From Terriglobia bacterium (GTDB lineage Bacteria; Acidobacteriota; Terriglobia; Terriglobales; Acidobacteriaceae): a DNA stretch of 64,000 bases. Location: assembly GCA_963758275.1 (NCBI GenBank), contig CAVWUW010000031.1, forward strand, positions 183,745-247,744, in the 5' to 3' direction. Of this stretch, positions 2-33,366 are shown piece after piece; within the stretch, counting starts at the first letter, position 1; each line of letters opens with the position of its first letter. Below the pieces are notes generated by a model. The model was not told where the DNA came from, ran no database searches, and saw only the letters and a program-made list of their open reading frames with translations. A program made the translations under genes and the position numbers.

Positions 2-2602
2 CAGGCCGATTTGGATTATTGGAAAAAGCAGTTGGAGGCCGCACCAGAGATTTTGGAATTGCCGGCAGATTATTCCCGGCCGGACAAACCGAAGTTCGAT
101 GGAGCCGGTGAATATTTCGAACTAAACCAAACTGTAGTTAAAGGGCTCAAGGGCCTGGGCAGGCAAGCGGGAGCAACATTTTATATGTCAATGCTGGCGG
201 CCTACAGTGTGGTGCTGCATCGCTATAGCGGGCAAGATGAGGTTTTGATTGGGACGCCGGCAGCAAACCGCGAATACGAAGAATTGCACGGACTGATTGG
301 GTTGTTCGTCAACATGCTGGTGATCCGAGTGAATTTGAGCGGGAACCCCTCATTTCCGGAGTTGCTGAAACGGGTGCGGGATACGGCATTGGAAGCCTAT
401 GTACATCAGACTCTGCCCTTTGAGCTTCTGGTGGAAAAACTCAGGCCGGAGCGCAACCTGAATAGAAATCCGCTGTTTCAGGTGGCTTTCAGCTTTGTGG
501 GCAGCACGGCCGATGCCGAGGAGCGTTCAGTATCCTGGCCGCCATTCACCGAATTAAATAATTTCACCTTCAAGTTTGATATGGGAGCTATTGTTTTTCA
601 GGACTCGTCACGCTGTCGAATAAACCTCGGCTATAACCCGGAACTGTTCAGCCGGGACACATGCACTCGTTTCAAACAGCATTTTCACAACTTGCTCGGC
701 GAGATCGTCGCCGACCCGCAGGCGGGAATATCAACCCTTCCCATGCTTCTGTCCGAAGAGCGGCAGATCACGTGTGACTGGCAGAACACCCAGACGGAAT
801 ATCCCCGAGAAAAACGAATCGAAGAGATCTTCCAGGCGCAGGTGGAAAAAGCACCCAATGCCCCAGCCTTGCTGTATCACTCGACGACATTTACTTATCA
901 GGAACTGGATGATGCTGCCGGCCGTGTTGGGCGATACTTGCGCCAACTGGGTGTTGGTGCCGAAACGGTAGTTGGCGTATGCATGGAGCGGTCCTGGCAA
1001 CTGGTAGTGTCTTTACTCGGGGTCTTGAAAGCGGGAGGGGCATATCTGCCGCTGGATCCAGGCTATCCGACGGCGCGATTGCAGTTCATGCTGGAGGACA
1101 GCAAAGCTAGGGTGGTCTTGATGCAAACGCCCCTGATGGACACCTTGCCTTGGCAGTCACTAGAGTGCTGCCGATTTGTAAGGTATGAAGACATAGTGGA
1201 AACAGCAGAAGGCTCGGCACCGCTTCATTCAACCCCGGACAACCTCGCCTACATCATTTATACGTCTGGATCCACCGGCGCGCCTAAGGGCATTGGAATT
1301 CCTCATCGTGCTGTAACTCGACTCGTATGCAATACAAATTATGTGGGGTCTGGGGCGAACGATCGGATTGCGCAGGCTTCCAATCCCTCTTTTGACGCGG
1401 CAACATTTGAGATTTGGGGGAGCCTGCTGAACGGCGGCTGTGTTGCAGGAGTAAGCAGGGAAGAATCGCTTACTCCGAAGTTACTGGCCTCTCGAATCCG
1501 AGAAAGCAAGATGACTACCATGTTTCTTACGACCGCTCTGTTCAATCAATTTGCGGCGAGCGACGAAGCAGACGCGTTGGGGGAGCTGAAGTACCTGCTG
1601 TTCGGCGGAGAGGCCGTGGATCCAAAGTGGGTTCAAGAAGTACTCAAGCATTTTCCACCGAGAAACCTGTTGCATGTGTATGGTCCCACCGAGAATACAA
1701 CCTTCTCTACATGGCGGCGGGTTCAGTCTGTGCCCTCTGGAAGCACAACCGTGTCCATTGGTGCGCCAATCGCGAACACGGAGATCTATGTCCTGGATAA
1801 GAATATGATGCATGTGGCTACCGGCGTGACAGGAGAACTTTACGTGGGAGGAGATGGACTGGCGAGAGGTTATGTAAACCGGCCGGAACTTACTGCTGAA
1901 AAATTTCTTCCGAACCCGTTCGGTCTTCGCGGCTCAGAGCGGCTGTACCGTACCGGCGACCTAGTGAAATACAGGAGTGACGGCAACATTGAGTTTATCG
2001 GGCGTGCGGACCAGCAGGTGAAGATTCGCGGTTTTCGAATTGAACCGGGTGAGGTCGAATCGGTTCTGCGAAAACACGCGAAAGTCAGAGACAGCATAGT
2101 ACTGGTGAAAGATTATGAAGGAGACAAACGCCTGATCGCTTACGCGGCGGTGGAAAAAGGGGCTGAGAGACGGGACCTGCGACAGTATCTGAAAGACCGA
2201 TTTCCGGACTACATGGTTCCCTCAAAGCTGGTGCTGCTGCAAGAGTTACCACTGACTGAAAACGGAAAGGTTGACCGGCAAAAGTTGATCGACGGAACTA
2301 CCACGGACGACGATGAGGAGCAGCAAGAACAGCAGTATGTCGCGCCACGTAATCAACTGGAACGAACGATTGCGGAGATATGGAGCGACATGCTGGGAAC
2401 CGAGAAAGTGGGGGTCTACGACAATATTTTCGACCTTGGCGGACATTCGTTGCTCCTCATGGCGATCCATGCGCGCATGAAAAGACAAGTACCGCATGCA
2501 GTCCACCTATCAGTAAAAGATTTGTTTCTTTATCCCACAATCGATTCTCTAGTCGACTTTATGGGCCAGGAAGAAAGTGAAAGCGCATTTCTTCAACGCT
2601 GA
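2..2602 (+). CDS. Non-ribosomal peptide synthetase, 5' end outside the window: (partial C)-A-T
   Basis: The reading frame is open to the window edge. It shows C-domain C-terminal motifs (DYWKKQL, LPADYSRP). A-domain cores are LAYIIYTSGSTGAPKG, YGPTE, YRTGDL, GRADQQVKIRGFRIE and NGKVDR. The carrier motif is FDLGGHSLL (Ser codon 2447-2449). Confidence 0.95.
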   Translation, partial: QADLDYWKKQLEAAPEILELPADYSRPDKPKFDGAGEYFELNQTVVKGLKGLGRQAGATFYMSMLAAYSVVLHRYSGQDEVLIGTPAANREYEELHGLIGLFVNMLVIRVNLSGNPSFPELLKRVRDTALEAYVHQTLPFELLVEKLRPERNLNRNPLFQVAFSFVGSTADAEERSVSWPPFTELNNFTFKFDMGAIVFQDSSRCRINLGYNPELFSRDTCTRFKQHFHNLLGEIVADPQAGISTLPMLLSEERQITCDWQNTQTEYPREKRIEEIFQAQVEKAPNAPALLYHSTTFTYQELDDAAGRVGRYLRQLGVGAETVVGVCMERSWQLVVSLLGVLKAGGAYLPLDPGYPTARLQFMLEDSKARVVLMQTPLMDTLPWQSLECCRFVRYEDIVETAEGSAPLHSTPDNLAYIIYTSGSTGAPKGIGIPHRAVTRLVCNTNYVGSGANDRIAQASNPSFDAATFEIWGSLLNGGCVAGVSREESLTPKLLASRIRESKMTTMFLTTALFNQFAASDEADALGELKYLLFGGEAVDPKWVQEVLKHFPPRNLLHVYGPTENTTFSTWRRVQSVPSGSTTVSIGAPIANTEIYVLDKNMMHVATGVTGELYVGGDGLARGYVNRPELTAEKFLPNPFGLRGSERLYRTGDLVKYRSDGNIEFIGRADQQVKIRGFRIEPGEVESVLRKHAKVRDSIVLVKDYEGDKRLIAYAAVEKGAERRDLRQYLKDRFPDYMVPSKLVLLQELPLTENGKVDRQKLIDGTTTDDDEEQQEQQYVAPRNQLERTIAEIWSDMLGTEKVGVYDNIFDLGGHSLLLMAIHARMKRQVPHAVHLSVKDLFLYPTIDSLVDFMGQEESESAFLQR

Positions 2603-2684
2603 GGCCTCACGGGTTTCCGTTCTACTGAGCCCAAGTAATTCAAGCTGGCAAACGGTTCTTTCGGGCGTACTCGACATCTAGGCT

Positions 2685-5600
2685 ATGGGAAATAATTCAA
2701 AAACAGAGCGGAATGCATCAGACGCAAAAGAGCAAAGCGCCCACGGGAGCCTTTCCTCGATAGCCCTACCCCGCCGTCCTGCTGGAGCACGAGTTCCCCT
2801 GTCATTCAGCCAAAGGCAACTGTGGTTTATTCAGCAAATGATACCGAACACTCCAGCCTACAACGTGCCTTGGGCGCTGAAGTTGGAGAGGGAGGTTGAT
2901 ATCACGGTCTTGCAGCGCGCGGCGAACGAGATCATCCGGCGACACGAGGCGTTGCGAACACGGTTTGGTGCGTCAGATGGGGAGCCGGTGCAGTTGATCG
3001 AGCCGGAGCTGCATATCACCATTGAACGAGAGGATCTGAGCGGCATTTCTGTCGAAGAGCGCCAGGGCATTCTGCGCAGAAGACTTGGGGAAGAAGGACG
3101 GAAACCATTCAAGCTGGAACGGCTACCCTTGCTCCGTATTCGCCTTTTCCAATTGGGTGGCGAGCAGGTGCTTCTCACAGTAGTTCATCACATCCTCTTC
3201 GACGGCTGGTCTCTTGAAATCTTTTACCGCGAACTTGAGGCGCTGTACACGGCTTATCGGCAAGGTGAAAGTTCTCCGCTTCCCGAGTTCTCCATCCAGT
3301 ACAGTGACTACGCTTATTGGCAAGCGGAGTCGTTAAGACAAGGTGAACTGGAAGAGGGCATCGAGTACTGGAAAAAGCAACTGACGGGAACCCCATGGAG
3401 TTTAGAACTGCCAGCGGATTATCCGCGACCCGTAACGCCGAGGTTCGAAGGTGCAAGTATTGACTTTGAGATAAGTGAACCAGTCACAAGATCGTTGAAA
3501 GAGTTGAGCCGCAAATCTGGTGTAACACTGTACATGACCCTCCTGGCGGCCTACGCCGTGTTGTTGCAACGATATACCCGCCAGGAACAGATACTGATTG
3601 GAACCCCTATCGCTAACCGCTCGTTGGAAGAGCTGCAGCGTCTGATCGGCTTCTTTGCCAACACGTTGGTGATGCGGGTGGACTTGAGAGGAAATGTCAG
3701 GTTCACGGAGCTGCTGAAGCGGGTCAGAGAAAGTGCATTGGGTGGATATGCCCATCAGGATGTGCCATTTGAGCTGCTGGTGGAGCGACTTAAGCCGGAA
3801 CGCAGCTTGAACCGCACCCCATTGTTCCAGACCATGTTTGTAATGCAGAGCAGTTCACATTTGAGTGGTGGGGGATTCTTAAGCGGATATGCGGTCAACA
3901 CGGACCTACCCGTTGCCAAATTCGATCTTTCACTTAGCATGAGAGAGCGACACGGGAAGTTGTCGGCAGAGTTTAATTACGACATCAGCCTGTTTGCCGC
4001 AGACACAATAAGAAGGCTTCAAAACAATTTCATTTTTCTTTTGGAAGAATTGTCCAAAGCCGGCCCGCTTCGTTTAAGTGATCTGACCTCTATGCTCTCG
4101 TCGGGAGAACGGGATGAGATCAGGCATTGGAACTCTACCGACGTTTGCTATGGAAGAGGAGAGCGCCTGCATGTTCTCTTCGAAAAGCAAGTTCAGGCCG
4201 CTCCGGAGCGGCTAGCGCTGGTTTGTGAACAGGGGAACCTGACATATCGTGAAGTCAATCGCCGTGCGAACCAACTTGCACATTACCTTCAGAAGCAGGG
4301 AGTCGGGCCAGAATTGTGCGTCGGCGTCTGCATGGAGCGATCATGGGAGATGGTGGTGGCACTTCTGGGAATTCTGAAAACGGGGGCTGCATATCTGCCC
4401 CTGGATCCGGAATATCCAACTGAGCGGCTGCACTGGATGCAGCACGATGCGCGCGTCAATGTGGTGCTGACACAAGAAAAGTTTTCTCACCGTCTCGACC
4501 GCAGCAAAGGAACCAGGGTGATCCCGCTGGACACGTCGTGGAGTTTTGTGTCGCAGGAACGGGACCACGACTGTTTGGCAAGCGTCAGTGGAGAAAACGT
4601 GGCTTATGTGATCTACACCTCCGGTTCCACCGGCAAGCCTAAAGGTGTAATGAACCGCCATCGCGGCATCTGCAACCGTCTTCTCTGGATGCAGCAAGCA
4701 TACCGACTCCATGAGAGCGACCGTATTCTTCAGAAGACGCCCTACAGCTTTGACGTTTCGGTGTGGGAATTCTTCTGGCCATTGATAGCCGGTGCCCGTC
4801 TTGTCATAGCAAGGCCCGGTGGTCATCGTGACAGCACATACTTGCGAGACGTCATTAAAAAGGAAGGGATCACTACAATTCACTTTGTGCCTTCCATGCT
4901 TAAGTCCATGCTGGAAGACGAAGGTTTGCGCGGCTGTCGAAGTCTCAGGAGCGTGATTTGCAGTGGAGAGGCCCTGGGCCTTGGCTTAAAAGAACAGTTT
5001 TACCGGCAATGCCAGGCTGGATTGCACAACTTGTATGGCCCCACAGAAGCTGCGGTTGATGTCACCTTCTGGGAATGTGAGCGGGAAACGACGCGTTCTG
5101 CCGTGCCTATCGGGAGGCCCATAAGCAATACGCAGATCTACCTGCTGGATCAGAATCTGATGGAAGTTCCGGTATTGGCAACCGCTGAGCTGTGCATCGG
5201 CGGCGAAGGTCTCTCAAGAGGCTATCTGAACAGACCGGATTTGACGGCAGAAAAATTCCTGCCCAATCCCTTTGGCGAGAAAGGTACCCGACTCTACCGC
5301 ACGGGCGACTTGGCCCGCTTTCTTAACGACGGCGCCGTCGAGTACCTGGGCCGCATGGATAATCAGGTGAAGGTCCGTGGCAATCGAATTGAACTTGGGG
5401 AAATCGAAGAGGTACTGAAGCAGCACGCGTTAGTTCAGGATGGCGCAGTCATAGCCCATGAAGAGACCGGCGGAGAGAAACGACTCATTGCCTACATAGC
5501 GACGAAAAAAGACGTCAGCGTGAGGGCGCAGGACCTGCGGGCCTATCTCAAAGATCGGCTTCCGGACTTCATGATACCGGGCGCCTTTGTATTTGTTGAG

Positions 5601-8600
5601 AAAATGCCACTGAGTTCAAACGGCAAGCTTGACCGCAAAGCCTTAACTCAACTCGAAGCTGCCCACTTGCAGGAGTCGCGGAGCTATATTGCCCCACGCA
5701 ACATACTCGAAGACAAAATTGCGCAGATATGGGCAAAGGTGTTGCAGGTCGAGCAAGTGGGCGTAGACGACCATTTTTTTGATCTTGGCGGCCACTCGTT
5801 GCGCTTGATGCAGGTCCACTCAGAACTCAAGCAGAAGCTGCAGATTGATATTCCCGTCATCGATCTATTCCGTGTTCCCACAGTATCAGCGCTTGCAAAC
5901 TACATAACCGCGGTTAAGGACGTTACAAAATCTGGTGAGCCTACGGCGAATTTTCGAACCCAAGCCGAAGATACTTCCATTGCTGTAATCGGCATGGCAG
6001 GGAGATTCCCGGGCGCCCGCAACATCGAGGAGTTCTGGGAAAATATCAAAAATGGAGTGGAATCAGTTTCATTCTTCTCTGATGAAGAACTTTCGGATGT
6101 GCCGGATGCCGTGCGGGGCGATCCAAACTTTGTAAAGGCCGCCGCAGTCCTGGAAGACGCTGACTTTTTCGATGCCGATTTCTTCGGGTTTCGACGTCGC
6201 GAAGCGGAAACAACGGACCCGCAGCAGCGGGTCTTTCTTGAATGCGCATGGGAAGTGCTGGAACGAGCAGGCTACGATTCAGAGCGCTATCCGGGAGCAA
6301 TCGGGGTGTTCGCCGGGATGGCCACAAGCAGCTATTGGTTCAATTTATGTAGAAATCCGGAAGTTCTGGAATCCGTGAACAGCTTTCAATTGACAATTGG
6401 CAATGACAAGGACCACCTGCCTCTACGGGTTTCCTATAAGCTGAACTTGAAAGGTCCGAGCATAAGCGTGCAGACCGCGTGCTCCAGTTCGCTGGTGGCG
6501 GTGCATTTGGCCTGCCAGAGCCTCCTGGATGGCGAATGCAAAATGGCCATGGCGGGTGGAGTTTCGATCAGGGCCGTACAAAAAACCGGCTATGTTTACC
6601 AGGAGGGTGGAATAAGCTCTCCTGATGGCCACTGTCGCGCATTTGATGCTGATGCCGCCGGCACGATATCGGGGAACGGAGCGGCAGTAGTGCTTCTTAA
6701 GAAGCTTAAGGATGCGATCGCCGACGGAGATCATATTCATGCGATCGTTGTGGGATCGGCTATTAATAATGATGGGGCATTCAAAATTGGGTATACGGCC
6801 CCCAGTATCGATGGCCAGGCCGATGTCATTGCGCGCGCCCAGGCCAGAGCAGGAGTTCCTGCCGATACCATTACCTATGTTGAAGCTCATGGAACGGCAA
6901 CCCCTCTGGGAGACCCAATTGAAGTGGCGGCGCTTACCCAGGCTTTCCGGTTGCAAACGAATAAGACACAATTCTGCGCCATCGGCTCAGTCAAAACTAA
7001 TATAGGCCACCTTGATGCAGCCGCCGGCATAGCCGGTTTTATCAAAGCGGTCTTGGCGCTTGAAAGCGGTTTGCTCCCGCCCAGCCTGAATTTCAGGAAG
7101 CCCAATCCGAAAATTGATTTCTGTGCGAGTCCCTTCTTCGTCAATTCGAGATTCCAGAAATGGGAATGCGCTTCCGGGCCGCGTCGGGCCGGGGTGAGCT
7201 CGTTCGGTATTGGCGGCACGAACGCTCACGCGGTTTTGGAAGAGGCTCCTCAGCAGGAACCCGACAACCGCGAGTCGCAACCGCAACTGTTGCTCCTTTC
7301 CTGCAGGAGTGACGCAGCTCTGCAAAAAACTACTCTCAAGTTAGCTGAGCATCTGAAAAGTCATCCGGAACAGTGCATCCTAGACGTGGCCTATACGTTG
7401 CAGGAGGGGCGCAGGGAATTCGCCTTCCGTCGGGCAATTCTTTGTCAAAGCAGTGCTGATGGCATAAGAGCAATGGAGTCTGGCGATACGCAGAGGATCA
7501 TCACTGGAAAGTCAGAAACAGCGTCTCTCCCAGTTTACTTCCTCTTCCCCGGCCAGGGCGCGCAGTATGTCAACATGACGCGTGGGCTATATGAATCCAT
7601 TCCTGTGTTTCGCCGGGAGGTGGACCGCTGTTCGGAAATTCTTCGGTTACAGCTGGGATTCCATCTGGAGACTCTGCTTTACCCTGGAGAAGGCAGCCCC
7701 GAAGATCTCGAAGAGAAAATGCGGCAGACGGCGAACGCGCAGCCTACTCTCTTTGTGATCGAGTATGCATTGGCATCCTTGTGGATGGAGTTGGGAATCC
7801 GGCCACAGGCGATGTTGGGCCATAGTCTGGGCGAGTATGTGGCTGCATGCATGGCGGGCGTGATGTCTCTGGAAGACGCTTTGCGGCTGGTAACCGTTCG
7901 TGGGCAGCTCATGCAAAACATGCCGCCAGGCGCAATGCTGACGGTTGCCATGCCACATCACAGGGTAGCCGAACTGTTGAGCAATCATAAAGATGTTGCT
8001 CTTGCGGCAGTCAACGCAGAGGAGTCATGCGTAGTCTCTGGATCCGAAGAAGCGATTGTCCGACTGGAAACACAACTCGTAGAGCAGGGTTTTGAACCGC
8101 AACGCCTCCGCACGTCGCATGCCTTCCACTCGCCAATGATGACGCCAGTGGCTGAGTCTCTCAGGCATGTGTTGACCGGGATCAAGTTCAAAAGCCCCTG
8201 CATCCCTTTTCTGTCGAACCTGACTGGCGGATGGATTACACCGGAACAAGCCTCCAGCGCAGAATATTGGATCAAACATCTGCTTCACACCGTGCGTTTT
8301 TCGGATAATCTGCGTCATTTGCTCAAGGAACCCGGCGGTACTTTGCTGGAAATGGGACCAGCCACTTTAACTGTCCTGGCCAAGAGATATCCTGAGCGAC
8401 GCTCGGAGACCAGGCTACTCGCGTCTATCAAATCGAGAGCAGAAAAGGAGTCTGAATACTTGTCATTCCTGCACTCCGTGGGAACATTGTGGGCTGATGG
8501 CAGGCAGCTTCTCTGGCACATTTTGCCGCGTCACGGGAAGTGCAAGCGGGTGATACTGCCTACCTATCCGTTTGAAAGGCAGCGATACAACGTTCCTATA

Positions 8601-12514: not shown

Positions 12515-13565
12515 ATGAGTCAGTCAGAAAGCGCCGTGCGGGTGCGTTCCCCGTTTACCGCCCGCCGCAAGTCTGTGGGCAGTTTTTCTGAATGGACCAG
12601 GAAGAGCTATCTCCAGTCAGAAGATGGCCCGGTAGTGATTGCGGCTGTTGATGGACCTTGACCTGATGGCGTGGACCCAGCAGAATACGTCGTCGCTTAA
12701 AGACATGATCGAAAAACATGGGGCTGTGCTGCTGCGTGGCTTTGCTGTGAAGACGGTTGAGGCCTTCCGCAACTTCGTGCTGGCGCTATCCCCCAACATG
12801 CTGGAATACAAGGAGCGTTCTTCGCCCCGTCATAAAGTCCAGGCGGACATTTACACTTCCACCGACTACCCCGCCCATCAACGCATTTTCTTTCACAATG
12901 AGAATTCATATCAGTTCATATGGCCGATGAAGATATGCTTTTTTTGTTCCCTGCCGGCAGAGCACGGCGGAGAAACGCCCATCGCCGATGTTCGGAGGGT
13001 TTATCGGCGGTTATCGCCTAAGACGATCCAACGCTTCGAAGAAAAGTGCTGCATGTACGTACGAAACTTTGATGAGGCCCTGGGTCTTTCCTGGCAGGAA
13101 GTATTTCAGACCAGCGACCGGCTTCAGGTGGACGGGTACTGTAAAGATAACGGCATTACCTGTGAGTGGAAAGAAAACAACGGATTGCGCACCCGCGCAA
13201 TCCGTCCAGCAGTTGCGGTTCATCCCAGGACCGGTGAACGGGTGTGGTTCAACCACGTTGCGTTTTTCCACATCTCCACCTTGGATGCGTCGATACGCGA
13301 CGGACTGCTGGCGGCCATGCCTGAATCCGACTTGCCTGCCAATAGCTATTACGGAGATGGCTCTTCCGTTGAAGAGGATGTGATCGAGGAAATTCGCTCC
13401 GCCTATCGTAGTGAATCCGTCAGCTTCCCCTGGCAAAAGGGTGACATCCTTGCTGTTGACAACATGCTTACCGCGCATTCCCGCAATCCGTTCGTGGGAG
13501 AAAGAAAAATCCTGGTCGGGATGGCCGAACCTTATTCACGCCGGCAAGACCTGGAAGCTCTCTGA
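12515..13565 (+). pseudogene. TauD/TfdA-family (SyrP-like) Fe(II)/2-oxoglutarate amino-acid beta-hydroxylase, with its frame broken by an apparent 1-nt insertion near 12656
   Basis: ATG 12515 has a strong SD (AAGGAG). It encodes MSQSES...SYLQSEDGPVVIAAVDGP and then stops at 12659. The +1 frame continues as (L)DLMAWTQQ...KHGAVLLRGF...YKERSSPR...IYTSTDYPA...FFHNENSY (His 12894, Glu 12900). That sequence is typical of the NRPS-associated TauD clade, including the N-terminal extension. Skipping the C at 12656 restores ...AAVDGLDLMAW.... The ORF track only reports 12639-13565. Confidence 0.8.
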
Positions 13566-25398: not shown

Positions 25399-25430
25399 AT
25401 ACAATTGCGCAACGCCGAGATGTCCACCTC

Positions 25431-26804
25431 ATGAGTCAACCAGTTCAAGACGTTGTCGCCGGCCAGAATTTTGCCGGAGCCGAAAACCGCCGCAAAGGAT
25501 TGACTACCTTTTTAACGGTTTGGCTCGGGCAGACCGTCTCGATTATAGGATCGGGACTTACCGGTTTTGCACTGGGAGTTTGGGTGTACCAGCGGACAGG
25601 CTCGGCCACGAAGTTCTCTCTGATTGTGCTTTGCACTGTAACTCCCGGAATTTTTCTGGCGCCTTTTCTAGGCGTGATCGTCGACCGCTACAGCCGGCGC
25701 TGGATTATGATCCTCAGCAACATAACTGCGGCCATCAGTACGGTTGTGATGGCGGCGCTTTATCTACAGGGTAACCTGCAGCTATGGCACATCTGCGCGC
25801 TGATGGTGCTTATTTCCATCAGCAGCAGTCTGCTTAGTCCCTCATATACGGCCAGTATCTCTTCCATTGTTTCCAAAGACTTTTTAGGGCGTGCATCGGG
25901 GATGGTCCAGTTCGGGGCCGCGGCTTCTGACATGATTGCTCCACTCCTGGCCGGATCTCTCATCGTTGCGATTCATGTTCATGGCATCCTGATCATCGAT
26001 TTTGCGACTTATCTGTTCGCTGTGTTGACGTTGATAGTGGTCAGTTTTCCTGAGCCGCCACGCAAGAGTTCGTCATCGGACCTAAAGATGTCAATGCTGT
26101 CCGAGGTATCCGTGGGAATGCGTTATCTGAGGGCGCGGCCCGGACTGCTGGCGCTGATTGGTTTCTTTACCATGACCAATTTTGTCCTCGCAATGGACAA
26201 TATTCTGATACCGCCCATGGTGATTAGCCTGGGCGGCGCCACGGTTTACGGAATAGTGGCCGGAGTCGGCGGAACAGGGATGCTTCTTGGCAGCGTGACG
26301 ATGAGTATTTGGGGGGGGCCGAAAGAACGCATTCGGGGCGTTTTTCTGTACGGCTTGGTATTGGGCTCCGCTTTAATCCTGGAGGGTCTGCGTCCTAACT
26401 CCTGGCTCATAGCAGCAGCAGCATTCATTGCCGCGTTGGTGGTGCCCCTCGCCAACGGCTGCGCTATTCCTATCCTGCAATCCAAAACGGAACCGGCGCT
26501 GCAAGGAAGAGTATTCACGACCATGCGTTTTCTCGTAGGCTGCTCGGTGCCCTTTTCGTACGTGCTGGCGGGAAGATTAACTGACAAAGTTTTTGAACCC
26601 TTGATGGCGCCCAATGGAGGATTGAGCAACAGTTTGGGAAGAGTTCTGGGGGTAGGGTCTGGAAGAGGAGCCGCTTTGCTGCTGCTGATTTTAGGGACGC
26701 TCACTCTCCTCCTCACTCTCAGATTCTTGTCTTATCAGCCACTGCTGAGAGTTGAATCTGAAATTCCGGATGCCATTGGCTTAGAACCGGCTACATTTCA
26801 ATAA
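25431..26804 (+). CDS. MFS transporter (EntS-like exporter type common in NRPS clusters)
   Basis: 457 aa with about 12 hydrophobic segments. The N-terminus TVWLGQTVSIIGSGLTGFALGVWVYQRTGSA ... VDRYSRR is typical of this MFS subgroup. It lies 32 bp after the TE-containing NRPS gene. Confidence 0.85.
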   Translation: MSQPVQDVVAGQNFAGAENRRKGLTTFLTVWLGQTVSIIGSGLTGFALGVWVYQRTGSATKFSLIVLCTVTPGIFLAPFLGVIVDRYSRRWIMILSNITAAISTVVMAALYLQGNLQLWHICALMVLISISSSLLSPSYTASISSIVSKDFLGRASGMVQFGAAASDMIAPLLAGSLIVAIHVHGILIIDFATYLFAVLTLIVVSFPEPPRKSSSSDLKMSMLSEVSVGMRYLRARPGLLALIGFFTMTNFVLAMDNILIPPMVISLGGATVYGIVAGVGGTGMLLGSVTMSIWGGPKERIRGVFLYGLVLGSALILEGLRPNSWLIAAAAFIAALVVPLANGCAIPILQSKTEPALQGRVFTTMRFLVGCSVPFSYVLAGRLTDKVFEPLMAPNGGLSNSLGRVLGVGSGRGAALLLLILGTLTLLLTLRFLSYQPLLRVESEIPDAIGLEPATFQ

Positions 26805-26822
26805 ACGATCCAGGAGGATACA

Positions 26823-27056
26823 ATGCACGACGAACAGGAAGATAAAACTATTTATAAGGTAGTTGTAAACCACGAAGAACAGTATTCCATCTGGCCGGCG
26901 CACCGCGAGAACGCGCTCGGATGGAGAGATGAAGGAAAAGTGGGCCCGAAAGCCGAATGTCTCGCTCATATCAAAGAGATATGGACTGACATGAGACCGC
27001 TCAGTCTGCGCAAGACCATGGATAACGCGCGTCCCGTGGGAACTGGAAACTCATAA
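26823..27056 (+). CDS. MbtH-like protein
   Basis: 77 aa with the signature [26 protein letters not shown]...[15 protein letters not shown]. An AGGAGG SD precedes the start. Confidence 0.95.
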
Positions 27057-27070
27057 GAGGTCAAATCTGT

Positions 27071-27850
27071 ATGCCGGCTGTAACTACTTCTTTGCAAGCG
27101 GGCAAACGGACTTGGGTGAAAATTCCCCGGCATGCTAGTTCTTCCAAGGTACGCTTGTTTTGCTTCCCTTATGCCGGAGGACGCTCCCAGGTCTTTCGCG
27201 AGTGGGTAAACGCGTTTTCAACTGGCATTGAGGTTTGCCCGGTGCATCTTCCCGGCGAAAACATTAGGGAACCCTGCCTTACCGCGGTTGACGAGCTGGT
27301 TCCCATGTTGGCTGAGGGGTTAAGGGCTTACTTTGACAAGCCTTTCGCGTTCTTCGGCCACAGCATGGGCGCCATCATTGCCTTCGAACTTCTGCGCTTT
27401 ATGCAACGGAACCATGGACCCAGGGCTGCGCATTTGTTTGTCTCTGCACGGAGCGCTCCCGGCGTGCCGAACACGAACAAGCCTCTTCATGATCTGCCAG
27501 AACCGGAGTTGATCGCCGAATTGAAACTGTTGAATGGCACTCCGCGCGAAATTCTGGACAATGCAGACGTCCTTGACCTTTTGCTGCCAAGGATCCGTGC
27601 AGACTTCCAGTTGAATGAGACTTACTCCTATCTACCTGGTGAAGTCCTTGACTGTGGGATCACCGCTTATTGCGGAACTGAAGACTCGCATGTGCTTCCC
27701 GAAGAGATGCTTACATGGCGCAATCAGACGAGCGACGCCTTCACTTTGAATCTCCTGCCGGGTGATCATTTCTTTCTGCAAACGCAGCAGGCTGAGCTTC
27801 TGGCAAGCATCTCAGGCTCGCTGGCAATGGATCTGGCGCGGGCAGAATAA
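27071..27850 (+). CDS. Type II (editing) thioesterase
   Basis: Shows FCFPYAGG, GHSMGA (a GxSxG motif) and C-terminal PGDHFF, at about 260 aa. Confidence 0.9.
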   Translation: MPAVTTSLQAGKRTWVKIPRHASSSKVRLFCFPYAGGRSQVFREWVNAFSTGIEVCPVHLPGENIREPCLTAVDELVPMLAEGLRAYFDKPFAFFGHSMGAIIAFELLRFMQRNHGPRAAHLFVSARSAPGVPNTNKPLHDLPEPELIAELKLLNGTPREILDNADVLDLLLPRIRADFQLNETYSYLPGEVLDCGITAYCGTEDSHVLPEEMLTWRNQTSDAFTLNLLPGDHFFLQTQQAELLASISGSLAMDLARAE

Positions 27851-27930
27851 GCTCGGCTGCAGCAGGCAAATCAGTCCTTCTCACACATTCAGGAAAGGCC
27901 ATTGCCGTCTTGCTGCCGATTAGACTAATC

Positions 27931-28926
27931 ATGTACGAAAATATTATCGATACCATTGGAAATACTCCGCTAGTACGGCTGAACCGCATTATTCCTGAAA
28001 ACAAATTTCGCCTTTTTGCGAAGTTTGAAGCGGCCAATCCCGGCGGCAGCCTTAAGGACCGGCCGGCCGCTTACATCATCCGGGAAGCGCTCAAAGCAGG
28101 CATTATCAGTCCGAACAGCACAATCATTGAATCCAGTTCGGGGAACATGGGTATCGGCCTTGCGCAGGTTTGCGCTTACCACAAACTTAAGTTTATTTGT
28201 GTCATTGATTCCAAAACCACGCTGCAGAATCGTGCCGTTCTGAAAGCCTATGGAGCTGAAATTGATCTCGTCGCCAATCCCGATCCTACTACCGGCGAGT
28301 TCCTGCCTAGTCGCCTGAAGAGAGTCGCTGAGCTGCTGCAAATCATTCCAGAGAGCTTTTGGCCAGACCAGTACTCGAACTTGAGTAATGCGAGGGCGCA
28401 CTATCGCACGATGGATGAAATCGCGACAGCGCTGGAGGCCCGAATCGATCATATTTTCTGCGCCACCAGCACATGCGGAACACTGCGGGGTTGCAGCACC
28501 TTTATCCGCGAGCAGGGGCTCGCCACCCGCATCTGGGCGGTAGATGCAGTAGGCAGCGTATTGTTTGGCGGCCCCTCTGCGCGCAGGCTCATTCCGGGAC
28601 ATGGAGCCTCTGTGGTTCCCCGCTTGTACCACCCCGGCTGTGAAGACCGGCATGTTCATGTAACCGATCTCGACTGCGTTCTGGGTTGCCGCCGCCTAGT
28701 GGCCAGAGAAGCGATCCTGGCTGGCGGGTCTTCAGGCGCAATCGTGGCCGCCATTGACAAGGTGCAGAGCCAATTGAAAGACAACTGCACATGCGTTGCA
28801 ATTCTGCCCGATCGCGGTGAGCGCTACCTGGACACAATTTATTCTGATGAATGGGTCGAACAACATTTTGGCGATGTTCTTAAGCAAGGATCAAAGGAGC
28901 CATCATGGGCGTCAATGACATACTGA
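27931..28926 (+). CDS. sbnA: SbnA-type PLP enzyme (N-(2-amino-2-carboxyethyl)-L-glutamate synthase; first step to L-2,3-diaminopropionate)
   Basis: The start MYENIIDTIGNTPLVRL is followed by NPGGSLKDRPA and SSGNMG. The C-terminal ILPDRGERYLDTIYSDEWV closely parallels my recollection of S. aureus SbnA (ILPDRGDRYLDLVYSDTWL). The ORF-track start at 27910 is probably too early. Confidence 0.88.
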   Translation: MYENIIDTIGNTPLVRLNRIIPENKFRLFAKFEAANPGGSLKDRPAAYIIREALKAGIISPNSTIIESSSGNMGIGLAQVCAYHKLKFICVIDSKTTLQNRAVLKAYGAEIDLVANPDPTTGEFLPSRLKRVAELLQIIPESFWPDQYSNLSNARAHYRTMDEIATALEARIDHIFCATSTCGTLRGCSTFIREQGLATRIWAVDAVGSVLFGGPSARRLIPGHGASVVPRLYHPGCEDRHVHVTDLDCVLGCRRLVAREAILAGGSSGAIVAAIDKVQSQLKDNCTCVAILPDRGERYLDTIYSDEWVEQHFGDVLKQGSKEPSWASMTY

Positions 28927-29969
28927 TTCTGAGATCGGCCGAGATTCAGGAGATCCTGCGCGGGCGCGAACGCGAGGTCATCGAAGAGGTAAGGCTTGCG
29001 TATCTGGCCCACGGGGCTCGTCAGACCTTTCTTCCTCATTCCTCGTTTCTGACGTTCCCTGGCCAGCCTGCAGACCGCATTATCGCGCTACCAGCCTATC
29101 TTGGAGGGAACCCGCCAGCCAGCGGCTTGAAATGGATATCCTCATTCCCGGCCAATACCTCAAAGGGGATGGATCGCGCTTCGGCCGTGCTCGTTCTTAA
29201 TTCCTTGGTTACCGGCAGGGCTGAGGCGATCATGGAGGGATCTGGAATAAGCGCGCAACGAACTGCCGCGAGCGCGGCCCTTGCGGCGCAAGCTTTGCAC
29301 TCAAGACCAGCACCTGACTCCATGGGACTGGTAGGCTGCGGGTTGATCAATTATGAAATTGCTCGTTTTACCAAGCTGGTGTTCCCAGGTCTGAAAAAGA
29401 TGGCGCTGCTTGATCGCGTTCCGGGAAAAGCTGAGTCGGCGGCCGTTTTGTACGAAACCATGTTTCCAGAGGTGACTGTAATCGATCGCATGGATCTCCT
29501 GTTTAAGAGCTGTGAAATCATCGCATTCGCAACTACGGCGGCCACCCCTCACGTTACGGGCCTCGTCGCACGTCGATCCGGATGTACCATCCTCAACGTT
29601 TCTCTTCGGGATTTGTCTCCTGAGATAATTCTGGCCGCAGACAATGTCGTGGATGACCCGGATCACGTCTGCAGGGCATCAACCTCACTGCATTTGGCCG
29701 AGCAAAAGACCGGTAACCGGGCATTCATCCGTTGCTCTTTGAGCGACATTCTGGACGGAACGCAGCCCGCGCGTGGCGGCGAGGAGCAAACTTTGATTTT
29801 CAGTCCCTTCGGCCTTGGCATTCTGGATCTTGCAGTGGCTCGTCTGGTGATGCGCGTGGCACGCGAGAAGCAACAGGGCATTCGTATCACTGATTTTCAT
29901 CCCCACCCGCAGAAGGAGGCGAATAGCCACGGGCTTTCCGAAGCAGCCCGCCATGAAACGTCAGTATGA
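28905..29969 (+). CDS. sbnB: SbnB-type NAD-dependent dehydrogenase (ornithine cyclodeaminase/mu-crystallin fold; second step to L-Dap)
   Basis: An AGGAG SD precedes the start, which overlaps the end of sbnA. ADRIIALPAYLGG, SGLKWISS, DRASAVLVLNS and GCGLI parallel the SbnB motifs ADRIIAMPSHIGG, SGIKWIGS and ERASGVIILND. Confidence 0.85.
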   Translation: MGVNDILILRSAEIQEILRGREREVIEEVRLAYLAHGARQTFLPHSSFLTFPGQPADRIIALPAYLGGNPPASGLKWISSFPANTSKGMDRASAVLVLNSLVTGRAEAIMEGSGISAQRTAASAALAAQALHSRPAPDSMGLVGCGLINYEIARFTKLVFPGLKKMALLDRVPGKAESAAVLYETMFPEVTVIDRMDLLFKSCEIIAFATTAATPHVTGLVARRSGCTILNVSLRDLSPEIILAADNVVDDPDHVCRASTSLHLAEQKTGNRAFIRCSLSDILDGTQPARGGEEQTLIFSPFGLGILDLAVARLVMRVAREKQQGIRITDFHPHPQKEANSHGLSEAARHETSV

Positions 29970-29976
29970 GGGGATC

Positions 29977-30762
29977 TCAGTCTTGCGTGCTGATGGTTAC
30001 GTTTCCGTGCAAAGTAGACATCTCCAACTCGGGACCGGCTCCGTTTGTTTTACCTCCGGCTTGAGTTACTGCCAGGCCTTTCAACTGTACGGGACCGCTT
30101 CCGGTAATTACGGTATCCCCGCTTCCAGACGGCCGAAAAACAACATTTCGTGGCAGCTTCAAACGGATGTTCCCGTTCTGGGTCTTGATGGATAGCGAGC
30201 CAGTCCACAATTTGCCCATGGCCAAGTCCAGTGATCCATTTCCTGTCCGCGCTGAGGTTATCGTCTCAGTGGTGGAGATGTCGATGTCGCCGTTTACGGT
30301 GGTTGCATCAACGCGGCTTTGCACAGAACTAGCCCTCACGGTCCCATTGAGATTGCTTGCAACAAACGCAACGCCCGCAGGTAGTTGCAATTTGAAATCA
30401 ACGCGCACGTCTTTCGGCAAAGATGCACTTCCACAGGGCTTGACCACCTTTTCCCCATCGGGCGCCAAACAGATGAAGATGCCCTCCGCGTTCTCGGAAA
30501 GCGCAACTTTGACTTGGTCTGAGCCAGGTCCAGTTTTGGTTGCTTCCACCTGCAACTCGCTGTTCGGCGATAAGGAAGCATTGATAGATCCGTTCACCCC
30601 GTGTACCACCACTGTTTTTCCAGAAGCTATCGCAGAATGCCAGTGAAACACCTGATCCTCCTTACCTTGTGCAGCGAGAGACTGACCAACAGCAAGTAAT
30701 GAAAGGACAGTAATGAGCCGAGTAATTCCACCACCACAGCAGCGTAGATGCGCGTTGGCCAT
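29977..30762 (-). CDS. Secreted beta-rich protein, DUF4097-like (putative adhesin fold)
   Basis: Has a signal-peptide-like N-terminus and repeated NGSI/NGDI/NGNI/HGNV strand motifs. It is convergent with sbnB across a 7-bp gap. Confidence 0.6.
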   Translation of the reverse strand: MANAHLRCCGGGITRLITVLSLLAVGQSLAAQGKEDQVFHWHSAIASGKTVVVHGVNGSINASLSPNSELQVEATKTGPGSDQVKVALSENAEGIFICLAPDGEKVVKPCGSASLPKDVRVDFKLQLPAGVAFVASNLNGTVRASSVQSRVDATTVNGDIDISTTETITSARTGNGSLDLAMGKLWTGSLSIKTQNGNIRLKLPRNVVFRPSGSGDTVITGSGPVQLKGLAVTQAGGKTNGAGPELEMSTLHGNVTISTQD

Positions 30763-31145
30763 AGGCGGTTAATTATAAAGTGATAGGGGCAGGAATGACA
30801 ATCAGCCAAATAGTCAGGTAGAGGTCAGTTTGAATTTTAAGCGCTTGACACAACGTCATCCTTAAGGCGTGAGCGAGCCCGCGTTTACATCAGCGGGCGA
30901 GTAGCCCTGAGGGACCTTGTGCCTTGGCAAGAATTCGGTATGCACGCCACCAGATCTCTCGCCGCTGCTCCGGCGCTCTGCCCATTCACGCGCAAAGGCG
31001 GCGCGCAAATGGGAACCCAATGCGCGCCGTCGCAAAACACGACTCGAGACGAAGTGTTTGAGTATTGGATCAATCTAACCTCCTACAGTCATTCCAAACT
31101 GAACCACTGATAGCTGTTATCTGACTGCGTTTTCCGGATTAGGTC

Positions 31146-31685
31146 ATGAACTCCATGGACTGTAACCAGCACGATTTCAAGAGGGCGTGTTCACGATTTC
31201 CCACCGGCGTAACTGTGACCACAGTCATTGGCCAGAATGGTTTGCCCTTTGGAATCACCGTAAGCTCGTTTACCAGCGTGTCTTTGTCTCCTCCTCTGGT
31301 GCTCATATGCATTGACCATCGGTCGCCCGTACTCAGGCATGTTGCTATCGGCAAGCACTTTGGTGTGAACGTTCTGGGAGAGCACCAGCAGGAGCTTTCA
31401 ATCAAATTTTCCCGCGATTGCAATGATCGCTTTACGGATGTTGAGTGGTACGCAGGGCGGACGGGTGTGCCTTTGCTTTTTGATGTGCCCGCGAGTTTTG
31501 AGTGCGAAGCAATTCAGAGCGTGGTCGCCGGAGATCATTTCATTGTTTTGGGAAGGGTTTTGCACGTCAGTTCCAGAGACGGGTCTCCGCTCACCTATGT
31601 GAATCATTGTTATGGAAGTATCTCCAATCCCACGCCATACAACATGAGCGGGCAACTTTCTCCGGCAGGGCCTAAAGGTCACTGA
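31146..31685 (+). CDS. Flavin reductase (split-barrel NAD(P)H:flavin oxidoreductase)
   Basis: FKRACSRFPTGVTVTTV...GITVSSFTSVSLSPPLVLICI...FGVNVL is typical of the flavin reductase domain. It lies 76 bp upstream of the halogenase gene. Confidence 0.85.
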   Translation: MNSMDCNQHDFKRACSRFPTGVTVTTVIGQNGLPFGITVSSFTSVSLSPPLVLICIDHRSPVLRHVAIGKHFGVNVLGEHQQELSIKFSRDCNDRFTDVEWYAGRTGVPLLFDVPASFECEAIQSVVAGDHFIVLGRVLHVSSRDGSPLTYVNHCYGSISNPTPYNMSGQLSPAGPKGH

Positions 31686-31761
31686 ACGGGTTGAATAGCA
31701 CAGATGGAACCAATTATCAGAGTGATGAATCAAGCAAATGTCACATTATTAAGGAGGAAAT

Positions 31762-33366
31762 GTGCAGCGTAATTTCAGAGTAGTGATTGTGGGGGGCGGG
31801 TCGGCCGGGTGGATGACAGCCGCATACCTTAGCAAGGCATTGGACCAGGGAGTGGACATTCAACTGGTCGAGTCCTCGAACATCGGGACGGTGGGGGTTG
31901 GAGAAGCGACCTTTAGCACAGTCCGCCTTTTCTTTGACTTTCTGGGGTTGCAGGAAGAGGACTGGATGCATCACTGCAATGCCAGCTACAAGTTGGCGAT
32001 TCGTTTCGTGGACTGGAATGCGGAGCGGCGCCATTTCTACCATCCTTTCCAGAGGTTCGATTCTGTAGAAGGAATCAGCATCATTGAATGGTGGCTTAAG
32101 TTTAAGAGAGATACTGCGCCCTTCGATTACTCGTGTTTCTCCGTACCCGCTATTTGCGATGCCCAGAAATCGCCGCGCTTTGAGAATGGCCACGTTTTCG
32201 ATAGTAAGGTAGACGGATATCTTTCCTCTGACGATCCCAACAAGGCACTCCTCCTGGAAGAGCTGAAGATACAGCACCCATTCGCGTATCACTTTGACGC
32301 CAGCTTAATTGCGAAGTTCATGTCTGGGTATGCGCAGGGCCGCGGAGTACGCCGGGTGATTGATGATGTACTGGAAGTAAAACACGCGGAGAATGGATTC
32401 ATCAGCAGCATCCGTACCGAAAACTATGGCGACATTGAAGGCGACCTGTTTATTGATTGCACCGGTGTCCGCGGCCTTCTCATCAACAAAGCTCTGAACG
32501 AGCCGTTCATCTCCTTCTCCGAGTCTTTGCCTTGCGACAGCGCTATAGCCGTTCAGGTCCCGAGCTATCCGGAGGCCGAGGGTATGAATCCATATACGAC
32601 TGCCACAGCGCTTTCCGCCGGCTGGGTCTGGAATATACCCCTGTTTAACCGGACCGGCACCGGATACGTTTACTGCAGCGCTTTCCAGTCCGCGGAGGCG
32701 GCCGAGCAGGAGTTCAGGCAGCACTTGGGAAAGCGCAACGAGGGCTGCAAAGCCAATCACATAAAGATGCGGATTGGAAGAAACAGAAATTCCTGGGTGA
32801 AGAACTGCGTGGCAATCGGCCTAGCAAGCGGCTTCGTCGAGCCTCTCGAATCCACAGGCATTTTCTTCATTCAGCACGGAATCGAGCAACTGGTGACTCA
32901 TTTCCCCAGGAAAACATATGATGAAGAGAGCATAAAAAGCTACAACCGGGCTGTGGCAGACGTGATTGATGGCGTTCGAGAGTTTCTTACCTTGCATTAT
33001 GCCGCGAGCACCAGAAATGACACTGCGTTTTGGAAAGCCACCAAAACCGATTTCGTCATACCACCGGAGCTCACGGAACGGCTCAAATTATGGAAAAAAC
33101 GCCTGCCGACGAACAGGAGCATCAATCCGCGATATCACGGCTTTGAAGCCTACTCTTACAGCGTGATGCTGTTGGGCCTCGGCCATAGGCCGGAATCGAG
33201 TTTACCTGTTCTGGATCACAGGGACAATGGTCGTGCTTTGGCCGCCTTTGAGGCCATCCGGCGGGACACGCGAAGACTAGTCCAAACACTGCCGACTTTA
33301 CACAACTATCTGGGCCAGCGATACCGGCAGGACAAGGACTACGAACTCGCTCTTGCCGTTCCTTAA
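31762..33366 (+). CDS. Flavin-dependent halogenase of the tryptophan-halogenase (PrnA/RebH) family
   Basis: The GTG start follows AAGGAGG. Motifs are VIVGGGSAGW, GVGEATF, ASYKLAIRFVDW (Lys codon 31990-31992, equivalent to the catalytic Lys), GWVWNIPL (WxWxIP) and FVEPLESTGI (catalytic Glu region). Length is 534 aa. Confidence 0.9.
   Translation: MQRNFRVVIVGGGSAGWMTAAYLSKALDQGVDIQLVESSNIGTVGVGEATFSTVRLFFDFLGLQEEDWMHHCNASYKLAIRFVDWNAERRHFYHPFQRFDSVEGISIIEWWLKFKRDTAPFDYSCFSVPAICDAQKSPRFENGHVFDSKVDGYLSSDDPNKALLLEELKIQHPFAYHFDASLIAKFMSGYAQGRGVRRVIDDVLEVKHAENGFISSIRTENYGDIEGDLFIDCTGVRGLLINKALNEPFISFSESLPCDSAIAVQVPSYPEAEGMNPYTTATALSAGWVWNIPLFNRTGTGYVYCSAFQSAEAAEQEFRQHLGKRNEGCKANHIKMRIGRNRNSWVKNCVAIGLASGFVEPLESTGIFFIQHGIEQLVTHFPRKTYDEESIKSYNRAVADVIDGVREFLTLHYAASTRNDTAFWKATKTDFVIPPELTERLKLWKKRLPTNRSINPRYHGFEAYSYSVMLLGLGHRPESSLPVLDHRDNGRALAAFEAIRRDTRRLVQTLPTLHNYLGQRYRQDKDYELALAVP

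Follow-up and report, generated by a model that had tools for sequence, protein, structure and literature searches.

The MycA (mycosubtilin/iturin) and McyE (microcystin) systems aminate the lipid or polyketide unit that heads their product, and the ring is closed through the amine of this unit. Reitz et al. in 2019 reportedly described a different kind of tailoring, in which a trans-acting Asp beta-hydroxylase is paired with an interface domain of the non-ribosomal peptide synthetases (NRPSs) for beta-hydroxy-Asp (beta-OH-Asp) siderophores (cupriachelin, potashchelin, and delftibactin). In the potashchelin synthetase, the domains follow the string C-TauD-C-A-PCP, the arrangement of beta-OH-Asp siderophore synthetases (PMC7100376), and antiSMASH 8 treats interface domains as siderophore-associated (PMC12230676). 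In the known polyketide synthase (PKS) systems with an aminotransferase (AMT) domain, the substrate of the AMT is a fatty-acyl or polyketide starter that heads the chain (PMC4219810). In Nonomuraea, the nonopeptin cluster contains a halogenase for chlorotryptophan with its reductase, an Asn 3-hydroxylase, and SbnA/B-like genes for 2,3-diaminopropionate (Dap) (PMC12728651), and Candidatus (Ca.) Angelobacter is exceptionally rich in giant NRPS and NRPS-PKS clusters that have no known products (Crits-Christoph et al.; PMC9723581). Here we describe an NRPS-PKS gene cluster in a 64,000-nucleotide stretch of contig CAVWUW010000031.1 (hereafter the window), which comes from an uncultured, Ca. Angelobacter-like member of the Acidobacteriota, class Terriglobia; the lineage record places the genus Ca. 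Angelobacter in this class.

Positions 2-33366 of the window are likely the 3' two-thirds of an orphan cluster of ~53 kb that encodes a colinear, 12-module NRPS-PKS assembly line. Its PKS-AMT module is internal, and its neighbours include a TauD-type hydroxylase, a degenerate C domain, genes for Dap, and a tryptophan halogenase.

Results

Operon layout and domain organization

Eleven co-directional genes occupy 2-29969 on the plus strand (Table 1). A first-pass annotation of this DNA had described them as separated by gaps of 82 bp or less, or overlapping, and the open reading frame (ORF) map agrees: the largest gap is 82 bp (2602 to 2685), and there are two overlaps. The junctions that it had singled out are also present in the sequence. 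The GTG start at 18178 overlaps the TAA at 18183-18185 (GTGAATAA at 18178-18185), the sbnB ATG at 28905 lies 22 nt inside sbnA, which ends at 28926, and an AAGGAG at 12501-12506 overlaps the TAA at 12500-12502, with the next ATG at 12515.

Pfam reproduced the proposed domain order exactly as [C]-A-T / C-A-T-KS-AT / ACP-AMT-C / TauD / C*-A-T-E / C-A-T-C-A-T-TE, where C* is the N-terminal C-like domain of the gene at 13605, with E-values from 1e-9 to 1e-196 across the string. The remaining genes of the operon were assigned to a major facilitator superfamily (MFS) transporter, an MbtH-like protein, a type II thioesterase (TEII), a PALP enzyme, and an ornithine-cyclodeaminase-like enzyme. HHxxxDG is found in every C domain but C*, and the motif scan located the carrier-protein GGxS, the A3, A8, and A10 motifs, the TE motif GWSFG, and the TEII motif GHSMG. 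Five A domains in the window yielded complete 10-residue codes, including Asp235 and Lys517. Two details had to be corrected. The ACP-AMT-C gene starts at ATG 8915, not at TTG 8894, which gives the 1195-aa product on record, and the cluster, which had been put at ~30 kb, is really ~50 kb long, as the window does not contain its first ~20 kb.

The whole assembly line and its predicted residues

The region upstream of the window was read from a near-identical JGI strain (98.8% identity; contigs L019 and L022), not from the window's own strain. In that strain the cluster starts ~20 kb upstream of the window (L022). The loading end had been expected upstream, together with any lipo-initiation module. 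The loading end is indeed there, but the first protein, NRPS-1, opens straight with an A domain and thus begins with a plain A-T loading module, whose code (DAWQFGLIDK) we take to be that of Gln. Because no starter C domain, FAAL, or acyl ligase was found at the start of the line in L022, lipo-initiation is not supported. The whole line consists of 11 amino-acid modules and 1 malonyl module; it is ~50 kb long if counted as far as sbnB and ~53 kb if counted as far as the halogenase. Going by the 98.8%-identical strain, the modules upstream of the window would load Gln and then add a Val-like residue, Ser, an aliphatic residue, Thr, and Val.

Two further features of the upstream proteins concern their C domains. 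NRPS-4 (L022 19973-22537) opens with a C domain of which just the C-terminal half is present (Pfam profile 187-454), while NRPS-3 ends in a complete C domain and no tailoring gene precedes NRPS-4. This is a second junction of the form C / C-remnant-A-T, perhaps a docking device. The C domains after the Gln and the first Ser modules (L022 3517-16501) form a pair of their own, with 64% mutual identity, ~35% identity to the other LCL-like C domains, and a common motif, HKEHHMLHDGWSF; they may represent a distinct subtype, e.g., dual E/C. Just 5' of NRPS-1, L022 1-3474 encodes a MacB-type ABC permease, a PD40/tricorn-like beta-propeller protein, and an aspartyl-protease-PDZ protein, for which a role in export, resistance, or processing is possible.

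The A-domain codes were read against a GrsA-PheA fragment, which reproduces DAWTIAAICK, and positions 322, 330, and 331 were anchored on YGPTE because the local alignment slipped by one residue in three domains. All substrate assignments are predictions from these codes. The code of module 7, DAFFLGVTFK, is of the Ile/Val type, and that of module 8, DVWHISLVDK, is of the Ser type. In the cyanopeptolin synthetase Oci, DAFFLGVTFK corresponds to Ile/Val and DFWNIGMVHK to Thr (PMC2533009). The A domain of the 13605 gene has the code DLTKIGEVGK, with Glu at position 322, which is anchored as an Asn code (PMC12283262). Module 11 has a 2,4-diaminobutyrate (Dab)-type code, DIWEITADDK, and the codes for Dab and Dap are ~80% alike (PMC12283262). 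Module 10 carries the code DPADLGLINK, with Asp at position 278. This code matches none that we know; it has LGLINK in common with DMENLGLINK, presumably the hydroxy-ornithine code, and the residue of module 10 is probably a short basic amino acid. Among the 11 codes of the line, none is of an aromatic type, and all are polar, aliphatic, or basic-type.

These codes, together with a DCL-type C domain, the AMT match, and SbnA/SbnB, support the colinear chain that the first-pass annotation had proposed: an aliphatic residue, Ser, a malonyl extension with a beta-amine, D-Asn, an unassigned residue, and Dab or Dap, followed by release by the TE.

The PKS-aminotransferase module

The KS domain has the Cys-His-His triad (TACSSS, EAHGTAT, and NIGH), and the AT has GHSLG and HAFH, consistent with the malonyl type. 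The ACP motif is DLGGDSL, and the catalytic Lys of the AMT lies in YGKALGGG. The AMT sits after the ACP and before the C domain and has the fold of class-III pyridoxal phosphate (PLP) enzymes (Pfam Aminotran_3, 1.7e-52). Its closest solved relative is the AMT of mycosubtilin MycA (6kfm; 477 bits, E 3e-142), whereas the best GSA aminomutase reached 213 bits (8e-62). Pfam found no KR, DH, or ER domain between AT and ACP. Given a malonyl-type AT, no reductive domains, and a MycA-like AMT, the beta-keto group is predicted to be retained and then converted to a beta-amine. The C domain that ends this protein is an outlier, with 24-29% identity to the other C domains, and this status would fit a junction from PKS to NRPS.

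Eight amino-acid modules precede the AMT module, the last of them for Ser, which makes it number nine of the twelve. The chain head has no acyl-ligase-loaded starter of the MycA/McyE type, and loading is by A(Gln)-T. KS-AT and ACP, without reductive domains, would add malonyl to Ser to give a gamma-acylamino-beta-keto thioester. The embedded AMT would then transaminate the carrier-bound beta-keto group to yield a 3,4-diamino-5-hydroxypentanoyl unit, and the C domain at the end of the protein would couple this diamino unit to Asn on the next protein. To our knowledge, a beta,gamma-diamino acid in mid-chain is unusual among known non-ribosomal peptides.

Relatives in other genomes

The ACP-AMT-C protein is 100% identical to record P0001; its next match is at 69% identity and all others are at or below 50%, mostly from Pyrinomonadaceae, Blastocatellia, and other Acidobacteriota metagenome-assembled genomes (MAGs), and then from Nostoc ACP-AMT-C-A-T proteins (38-39%). 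The matches to the last NRPS protein are at 98%, 69%, and 64%, followed by those at or below 48%. No homologue of either protein carries a product name. Orthologous clusters with the same gene order were found in four places: L002, labelled Ca. Angelobacter sp.; L013, a JGI soil metagenome contig that is probably from the same organism as L002 (identical tblastn scores); L011/L012, a 67-kb Logan contig; and L014 (WNGQ01000003.1). These clusters come from at least three other uncultured Acidobacteriota, and their proteins are 56-82% identical overall. Protein identity is 56-73% for the synthetases and 77% for TauD, and the codes of modules 10 and 11 are both kept in L012, L013, and L002. The first visible upstream gene of L014, used as a query, gave only paralogue-level matches of at most 46% over at least 80% of its length and no orthologue. 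Since the N-terminus of this ORF is a C-A linker, the L014 locus is without the start of the line.

The cluster thus keeps its orphan status in the homologue searches, as beyond four to five orthologous metagenomic loci the identities fall to 50% or less (ACP-AMT-C) and 48% or less (last NRPS) and no product is named. In the searched literature we found no characterized cluster that unites AMT, Dap, and halogenase, and no Acidobacteria NRPS-PKS product. The combination had been called unusual, and no described counterpart was found for it or for the internal position of the AMT; its parts, however, are known, and ACP-AMT-C proteins are widespread in Acidobacteriota and Nostoc. We found no description of this cluster family in the searchable literature.

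A divergent copy of a characterized PKS-AMT pathway, of the iturin/mycosubtilin, microcystin/nodularin, puwainaphycin, or occidiofungin type, would also have an AMT that is clearly of the MycA type, as this one is, and relatives such as the Nostoc proteins at 38-39% identity. We consider this explanation highly improbable. Here the AMT comes after eight amino-acid modules, where it would act on a Ser-malonyl intermediate, FAAL or acyl-ligase loading is absent, and no homologue above 50% identity was found outside the uncultured Acidobacteriota group, nor any with a product name.

The hydroxylase gene and the interface-type C domain

The TauD-like gene of the first-pass domain order is a sound assignment (Pfam 5e-45), but its frameshift had been missed. 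The frame that opens at ATG 12515 contains codons 1-45; the TauD domain is encoded in the +1 frame, at 12639-13565. The split is due to one extra T at 12652 (GATGGACC versus GAGGACC in L021). Contig L021, from the Logan assembly of ERR11596060, matches 11720-17605 with 0 mismatches and 1 gap and encodes an intact TauD of 349 aa. In the orthologues TauD is a single 343-aa gene, and the source record has pieces of 48 aa and 299 aa. Because a split OPT transporter and a truncated short-chain dehydrogenase (SDR) occur in the same window, the frameshift is better explained by a consensus error or a rare variant than by decay of the pathway.

If the cluster were decaying and non-functional in this genome, one would expect lesions such as the frameshifted TauD, an OPT gene split over two frames, the truncated SDR, and the nearby IS630-type transposase (33796-34863). 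Such decay seems very unlikely to us, as the megasynthase ORFs are uninterrupted over all 30 kb and retain every catalytic motif, the assembly from the same population is identical over 5.9 kb but for one base and has an intact TauD, and a strain with 98.5-98.9% identity has all genes intact.

C* is full-length (Pfam profile 4-456) and scores 158 bits, compared with 290-370 bits for the catalytic C domains. Its identity to every other C domain is 20-27%, and it has SKFCSDKAG in place of HHxxxDG. The TauD gene lies directly upstream, and the earlier description of a degenerate, interface-like C domain holds; by analogy, C* matches the interface-domain type and is the predicted partner of TauD. 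A 1549-aa relative, P0076 (40% identity), contains ACP-AMT-C-TauD in one polypeptide, which means that some lineages have the hydroxylase physically joined to the PKS-AMT protein. No AsnO/VioC-type match for TauD was found among the solved structures in PDB, and for this reason hydroxylation of carrier-bound Asn is the better guess. The TauD/SyrP-type oxygenase, recruited by the dead C-like interface domain, would beta-hydroxylate tethered Asn, and the E domain would then epimerize the (hydroxy)Asn to the D form. The C domain after E has a DCL-type N-terminus, YPLVPLQRGLLF, and with the E domain this predicts a D-configured (hydroxy)Asn. The D-Asn is probably hydroxylated, a possibility that had been allowed from the start.

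The same genes could be read as those of a peptide metallophore (siderophore), with TauD and the interface domain providing a beta-hydroxy-Asp/Asn chelator and the EntS-like MFS protein exporting the product. The first description of SbnA and SbnB came from staphyloferrin B synthesis, which counts for this explanation, as does the presence of an MFS_3 (EntS-type) pump and MbtH. The order C / TauD / C-like-A-T is moreover a hallmark of beta-OH-Asp siderophore synthetases (PMC7100376; interface domains, PMC12230676). However, the code DLTKIGEVGK is that of Asn, not Asp, and beta-hydroxy-Asn would be without the alpha-hydroxy-carboxylate. No hydroxamate, catechol, or second hydroxy-acid pathway was found in the window, Pfam and NCBIfam searches of the window and of the 3.5 kb that L022 shows upstream gave no gene for a TonB-dependent receptor or ferric reductase, and the 11 residues would offer a single potential bidentate group. 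With no Asp code, no further chelator genes, and no uptake genes, we rejected the siderophore explanation, which we hold to be quite improbable.

Terminal modules and accessory genes

In the colinear chain, the DCL-type C domain would add the residue chosen by the DPADLGLINK pocket, probably a short basic one, and the last module would add a Dab/Dap-type residue before the TE released the chain. Release may be macrolactamization onto the free beta-amine or a side-chain amine; by analogy, the free beta-amine is a candidate for the ring-closing nucleophile, although this is speculation. SbnA scored 413.6 bits with the NCBIfam equivalog model TIGR03945 (cut-off 349.95), and SbnB scored 382.4 with TIGR03944 (cut-off 326.9). 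Since both are true equivalogs, module 10 or module 11 very probably takes L-Dap. The two genes form an overlapping, translationally coupled pair at the end of the operon. SbnA and SbnB would supply L-Dap, MbtH would assist the A domains, TEII would edit mis-primed carriers, and the MFS protein would export the product.

Beside the orthologous clusters, sbnA and mbtH occur only with L012 (78% and 82% identity) and neither is found with L013, TEII is confined to the window's species and is absent from both, and the MFS gene is kept in both (61-63% identity). The cluster had been credited with its own precursor supply and editing. This applies to the window's species but not to the cluster family, since sbnB and TEII are absent from L012 and L013; with the flavin reductase absent as well, own precursor supply and editing are species-specific.

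The halogenase and the 3' edge

The halogenase has the motifs GGGSAG, WVWNIP, SYKLAIRF, and EPLES, and its matches in PDB are SttH, Tar14, Th-Hal, and PyrH (E 1e-171 to 1e-180). In both L012 and L013 it occupies the same place, at the 3' edge of the cluster and next to unrelated downstream neighbours, and its identity there (80-81%) exceeds that of the NRPS genes (56-69%). Because of this synteny and conservation in two orthologues, there is good sequence evidence that the halogenase belongs to the pathway. Halogenation had been listed as a possibility, and the link of the halogenase to the cluster is firmer than that, but a slot for its substrate was not found in the line, and the lack of an aromatic-type code is the main unexplained point.

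It is also conceivable that the halogenase and the flavin reductase form a mobile pair of genes next to the cluster that makes free chloro- or bromo-tryptophan for another purpose. This would agree with the lack of an aromatic-type code in the 11 modules, with the minus-strand gene and 380-bp spacer that separate the operon from the pair, with the IS630-type transposase and tRNA-Leu just downstream, and with the breaks of independent assemblies at ~30920-30950. A separate unit would not be expected, however, to stand at the 3' edge in two other lineages with other downstream neighbours and to be more conserved than the NRPS, and an inverted-repeat pair bracketing 31102-34896 is no better than chance. 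We therefore think a separate unit unlikely and prefer to place the halogenase in the pathway. A mobile unit of flavin reductase, halogenase, and transposase was likewise rejected: the inverted repeats at 31102-31119 and 34879-34896 match at 15/18 positions, which is within chance, as ~5 such pairs are expected in 5.3 kb.

If the halogenase does belong to the pathway, its product would have to be used by a line in which no canonical Trp A domain was seen. One tentative and rather doubtful idea is that the internal AMT makes a vicinal diamine on the line (by a BioF/BioA-like logic) as a branch or ring point, and that the halogenase feeds the same line. Halogenated Trp would then enter through the DPADLGLINK pocket of module 10 or be attached after assembly.

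Several observations concern the DNA around the halogenase. The 261-aa gene that follows sbnB on the minus strand is also present in L013 (56% identity), between the export gene and the halogenase. A promoter/terminator scan of 25000-35000 gave counts at or under the shuffle expectation, and the only good -35/-10 match in this interval, at 30801-30772 on the minus strand, suits the divergent 261-aa gene. Contigs L001 and L023 both stop in the spacer that separates the 261-aa gene from the flavin reductase; no repeat or ORF was found that would explain the breaks at 30917-30952, which may reflect strain heterogeneity downstream. After the halogenase, the transposase, SDR fragment, and tRNA-Leu look like a 3' cluster boundary at a tRNA/IS hotspot. 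In L012 the halogenase is followed (21890-27242) by an extra C-A protein, a 600-aa protein, and a GT4 glycosyltransferase, all absent from the window; the extra C-A protein has 936 aa, an Asn-type code (DLTKVGEVGK), and no T domain, and the 600-aa protein has no family match.

Assembly integrity

Four independent contigs (Table 1) tile 1-30952 collinearly, and therefore this part of the window is not chimeric. The possibility that the large ORFs were assembly artefacts, raised with the first description of the cluster, is thus dismissed. Elsewhere in the window, an OPT oligopeptide transporter is split in two plus-strand frames (43829-44695 and 44724-46106; Pfam profile 1-265 and 292-497), a second apparent frameshift that suggests assembly indel errors or pseudogenes. 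The genes for an HNH endonuclease (42107-42832) and a ComF-like phosphoribosyltransferase/double-zinc-ribbon protein (42721-43479), both on the minus strand, overlap by ~110 nt.

Table 1. Genes of the cluster and its surroundings, upstream proteins read from the near-identical strain, and independent contigs that cover the window
Feature	Position in window	Strand	Evidence or remarks
NRPS-1, 2148 aa, A(DAWQFGLIDK)-T-C-A(DPLWLGGTFK, Val-like)-T-C			L022
NRPS-2, 2166 aa, A(DVWHISLIDK, Ser)-T-C-A(DALLLGGTFK, aliphatic)-T-C			L022
NRPS-3, 1125 aa, A(DFWNIGMVHK, Thr)-T-C			L022
NRPS-4, 854 aa, half-C-A(DAFWLGGTFK, Val)-T			L022
NRPS-5, 1087 aa full-length, C-A(DAFFLGVTFK)-T			L019/L022; window edge cuts this gene
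NRPS gene 5, 3' part, [C]-A-T, module 7	2..2602	+	Pfam; cut by window edge
Hybrid NRPS-PKS, C-A-T-KS-AT	2685..8840	+	Pfam, motifs; exact product on record
ACP, long linker, PLP aminotransferase AMT, C domain	8915..12502	+	Pfam; 1195-aa product is record P0001
TauD/SyrP-type Fe(II)/2-oxoglutarate hydroxylase, frameshifted	12515..13565	+	Pfam TauD 5e-45
C*-A-T-E	13605..18185	+	Pfam, motifs
Terminating bimodule, C(DCL type)-A-T-C-A-T-TE	18178..25398	+	Pfam, motifs, codes
MFS transporter (MFS_1/MFS_3, EntS-like), presumed exporter	25431..26804	+	Pfam
MbtH-like protein, 77 aa, A-domain chaperone	26823..27056	+	Profile match
Type II thioesterase (GHSMG), editing	27071..27850	+	Pfam, motif
SbnA-family PLP enzyme (ACEGA synthase), L-2,3-diaminopropionate step 1	27910..28926	+	NCBIfam TIGR03945
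SbnB-family dehydrogenase, L-Dap step 2	28905..29969	+	NCBIfam TIGR03944
261-aa protein, weak DUF4097 ("toastrack") match	29977..30762	-	Pfam
Flavin reductase (HpaC/StyB type), presumed FADH2 supplier	31146..31685	+	Pfam Flavin_Reduct 1e-36, NCBIfam; window only
Flavin-dependent tryptophan halogenase, free-Trp 5-/6-halogenase type	31762..33366	+	Pfam 2.6e-144
IS630-type transposase (DDE_3 + HTH)	33796-34863	-	Pfam
5'-truncated short-chain dehydrogenase (SDR) fragment	35783-36316	+	
tRNA-Leu(CAG)	36085-36171	-	
Contig L019/L020, JGI Ga0679490_0000075	1-14986		98.7-98.9% identity
Contig L021, Logan ERR11596060	11720-17605		0 mismatches, 1 gap
Contig L023, JGI Ga0679490_0000684	16562-30952		98.5% identity
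Contig L001, Logan ERR11596060	19223-30917		99.97% identity

Discussion

The domain content, motif integrity, A-domain codes, synteny, and conservation of this cluster are direct observations, and we consider that they make a complete, colinear 12-module line the likely explanation. Certain points weigh against it. TauD is frameshifted in the window itself and, if this is real, the product of this strain would be non-hydroxylated. A conserved Trp halogenase stands beside a line in which 0/11 codes are of an aromatic type, and it is left without an obvious client. Contigs L001 and L023 both stop at 30917-30952, and in this species the link to the halogenase is thus made by the MAG contig alone. 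No SbnB, TEII, or flavin reductase accompanies the orthologous clusters in L012 and L013, and modules 10 and 11 keep identical codes whether or not an orthologue has sbnAB, so that either module may be the one that takes Dap.

Every component of the cluster belongs to a known family: a MycA/McyE-type AMT, an interface domain with its hydroxylase, SbnA/B, and a PyrH/SttH-type halogenase. What sets it apart, within the literature searched, is the combination and the internal position of the AMT, not a new kind of enzyme or system, and since clusters of this sort are numerous in Acidobacteriota, it is not surprising in kind. The Acidobacteriota rank among the most abundant bacteria of soils, and almost none of their natural products are known. 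A complete cluster, conserved in at least four diverged uncultured lineages and with its modules predicted almost in full, offers a concrete starting point for heterologous expression, or for making the predicted peptide by synthesis. For that peptide, the substrates, hydroxylation on the carrier, the mode of cyclization, and the role of halogenation are predictions. A mid-chain beta,gamma-diamino acid, if the prediction is true, would be a new peptide scaffold, and the target of the conserved tryptophan halogenase is a well-defined puzzle.

The cluster resembles the giant clusters of Ca. Angelobacter in coming from the same uncultured lineage and in being a multi-gene NRPS-PKS operon to which no product is assigned. 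It differs in that aminotransferase, halogenase, and Dap features have 0 occurrences in the description of those clusters (PMC9723581). As in the SbnA/SbnB pathway of staphyloferrin B, zwittermicin, and nonopeptin (NopI/NopJ), both proteins are present and above their cut-offs. The cluster differs in that modules 10 and 11 are both candidates for accepting Dap, and the orthologous clusters carry sbnA alone (L012) or neither gene (L013).

The halogenase, like PyrH, SttH, Tar14, and Th-Hal, has all the signature motifs and an adjoining flavin reductase. The clusters for chlorotryptophan peptides (nonopeptins, longicatenamycins, and taromycin) are from Actinomycetota and are pure NRPS systems with recognizable Trp/Cl-Trp A domains. 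The nonopeptin line in particular is a pure NRPS with recognizable Trp modules, whereas the line described here is a hybrid with a PKS-AMT module and no Trp A domain was seen in it.

As in the beta-OH-Asp siderophore NRPSs, a TauD/SyrP oxygenase lies between a C domain and a non-catalytic C-like domain that precedes A-T. Here, however, the A-domain code is that of Asn rather than Asp or His, and no other siderophore traits accompany it. Finally, MycA and McyE have the same KS(-AT)-ACP-AMT-C order, no reductive domains, and carrier-bound beta-amination. The present line differs from them in having no acyl-ligase loading, and its identity to the cyanobacterial relatives is ~39%. Its AMT module is internal and follows Ser, so that it would yield a vicinal (beta,gamma) diamino acid whose gamma-nitrogen carries an octapeptide.

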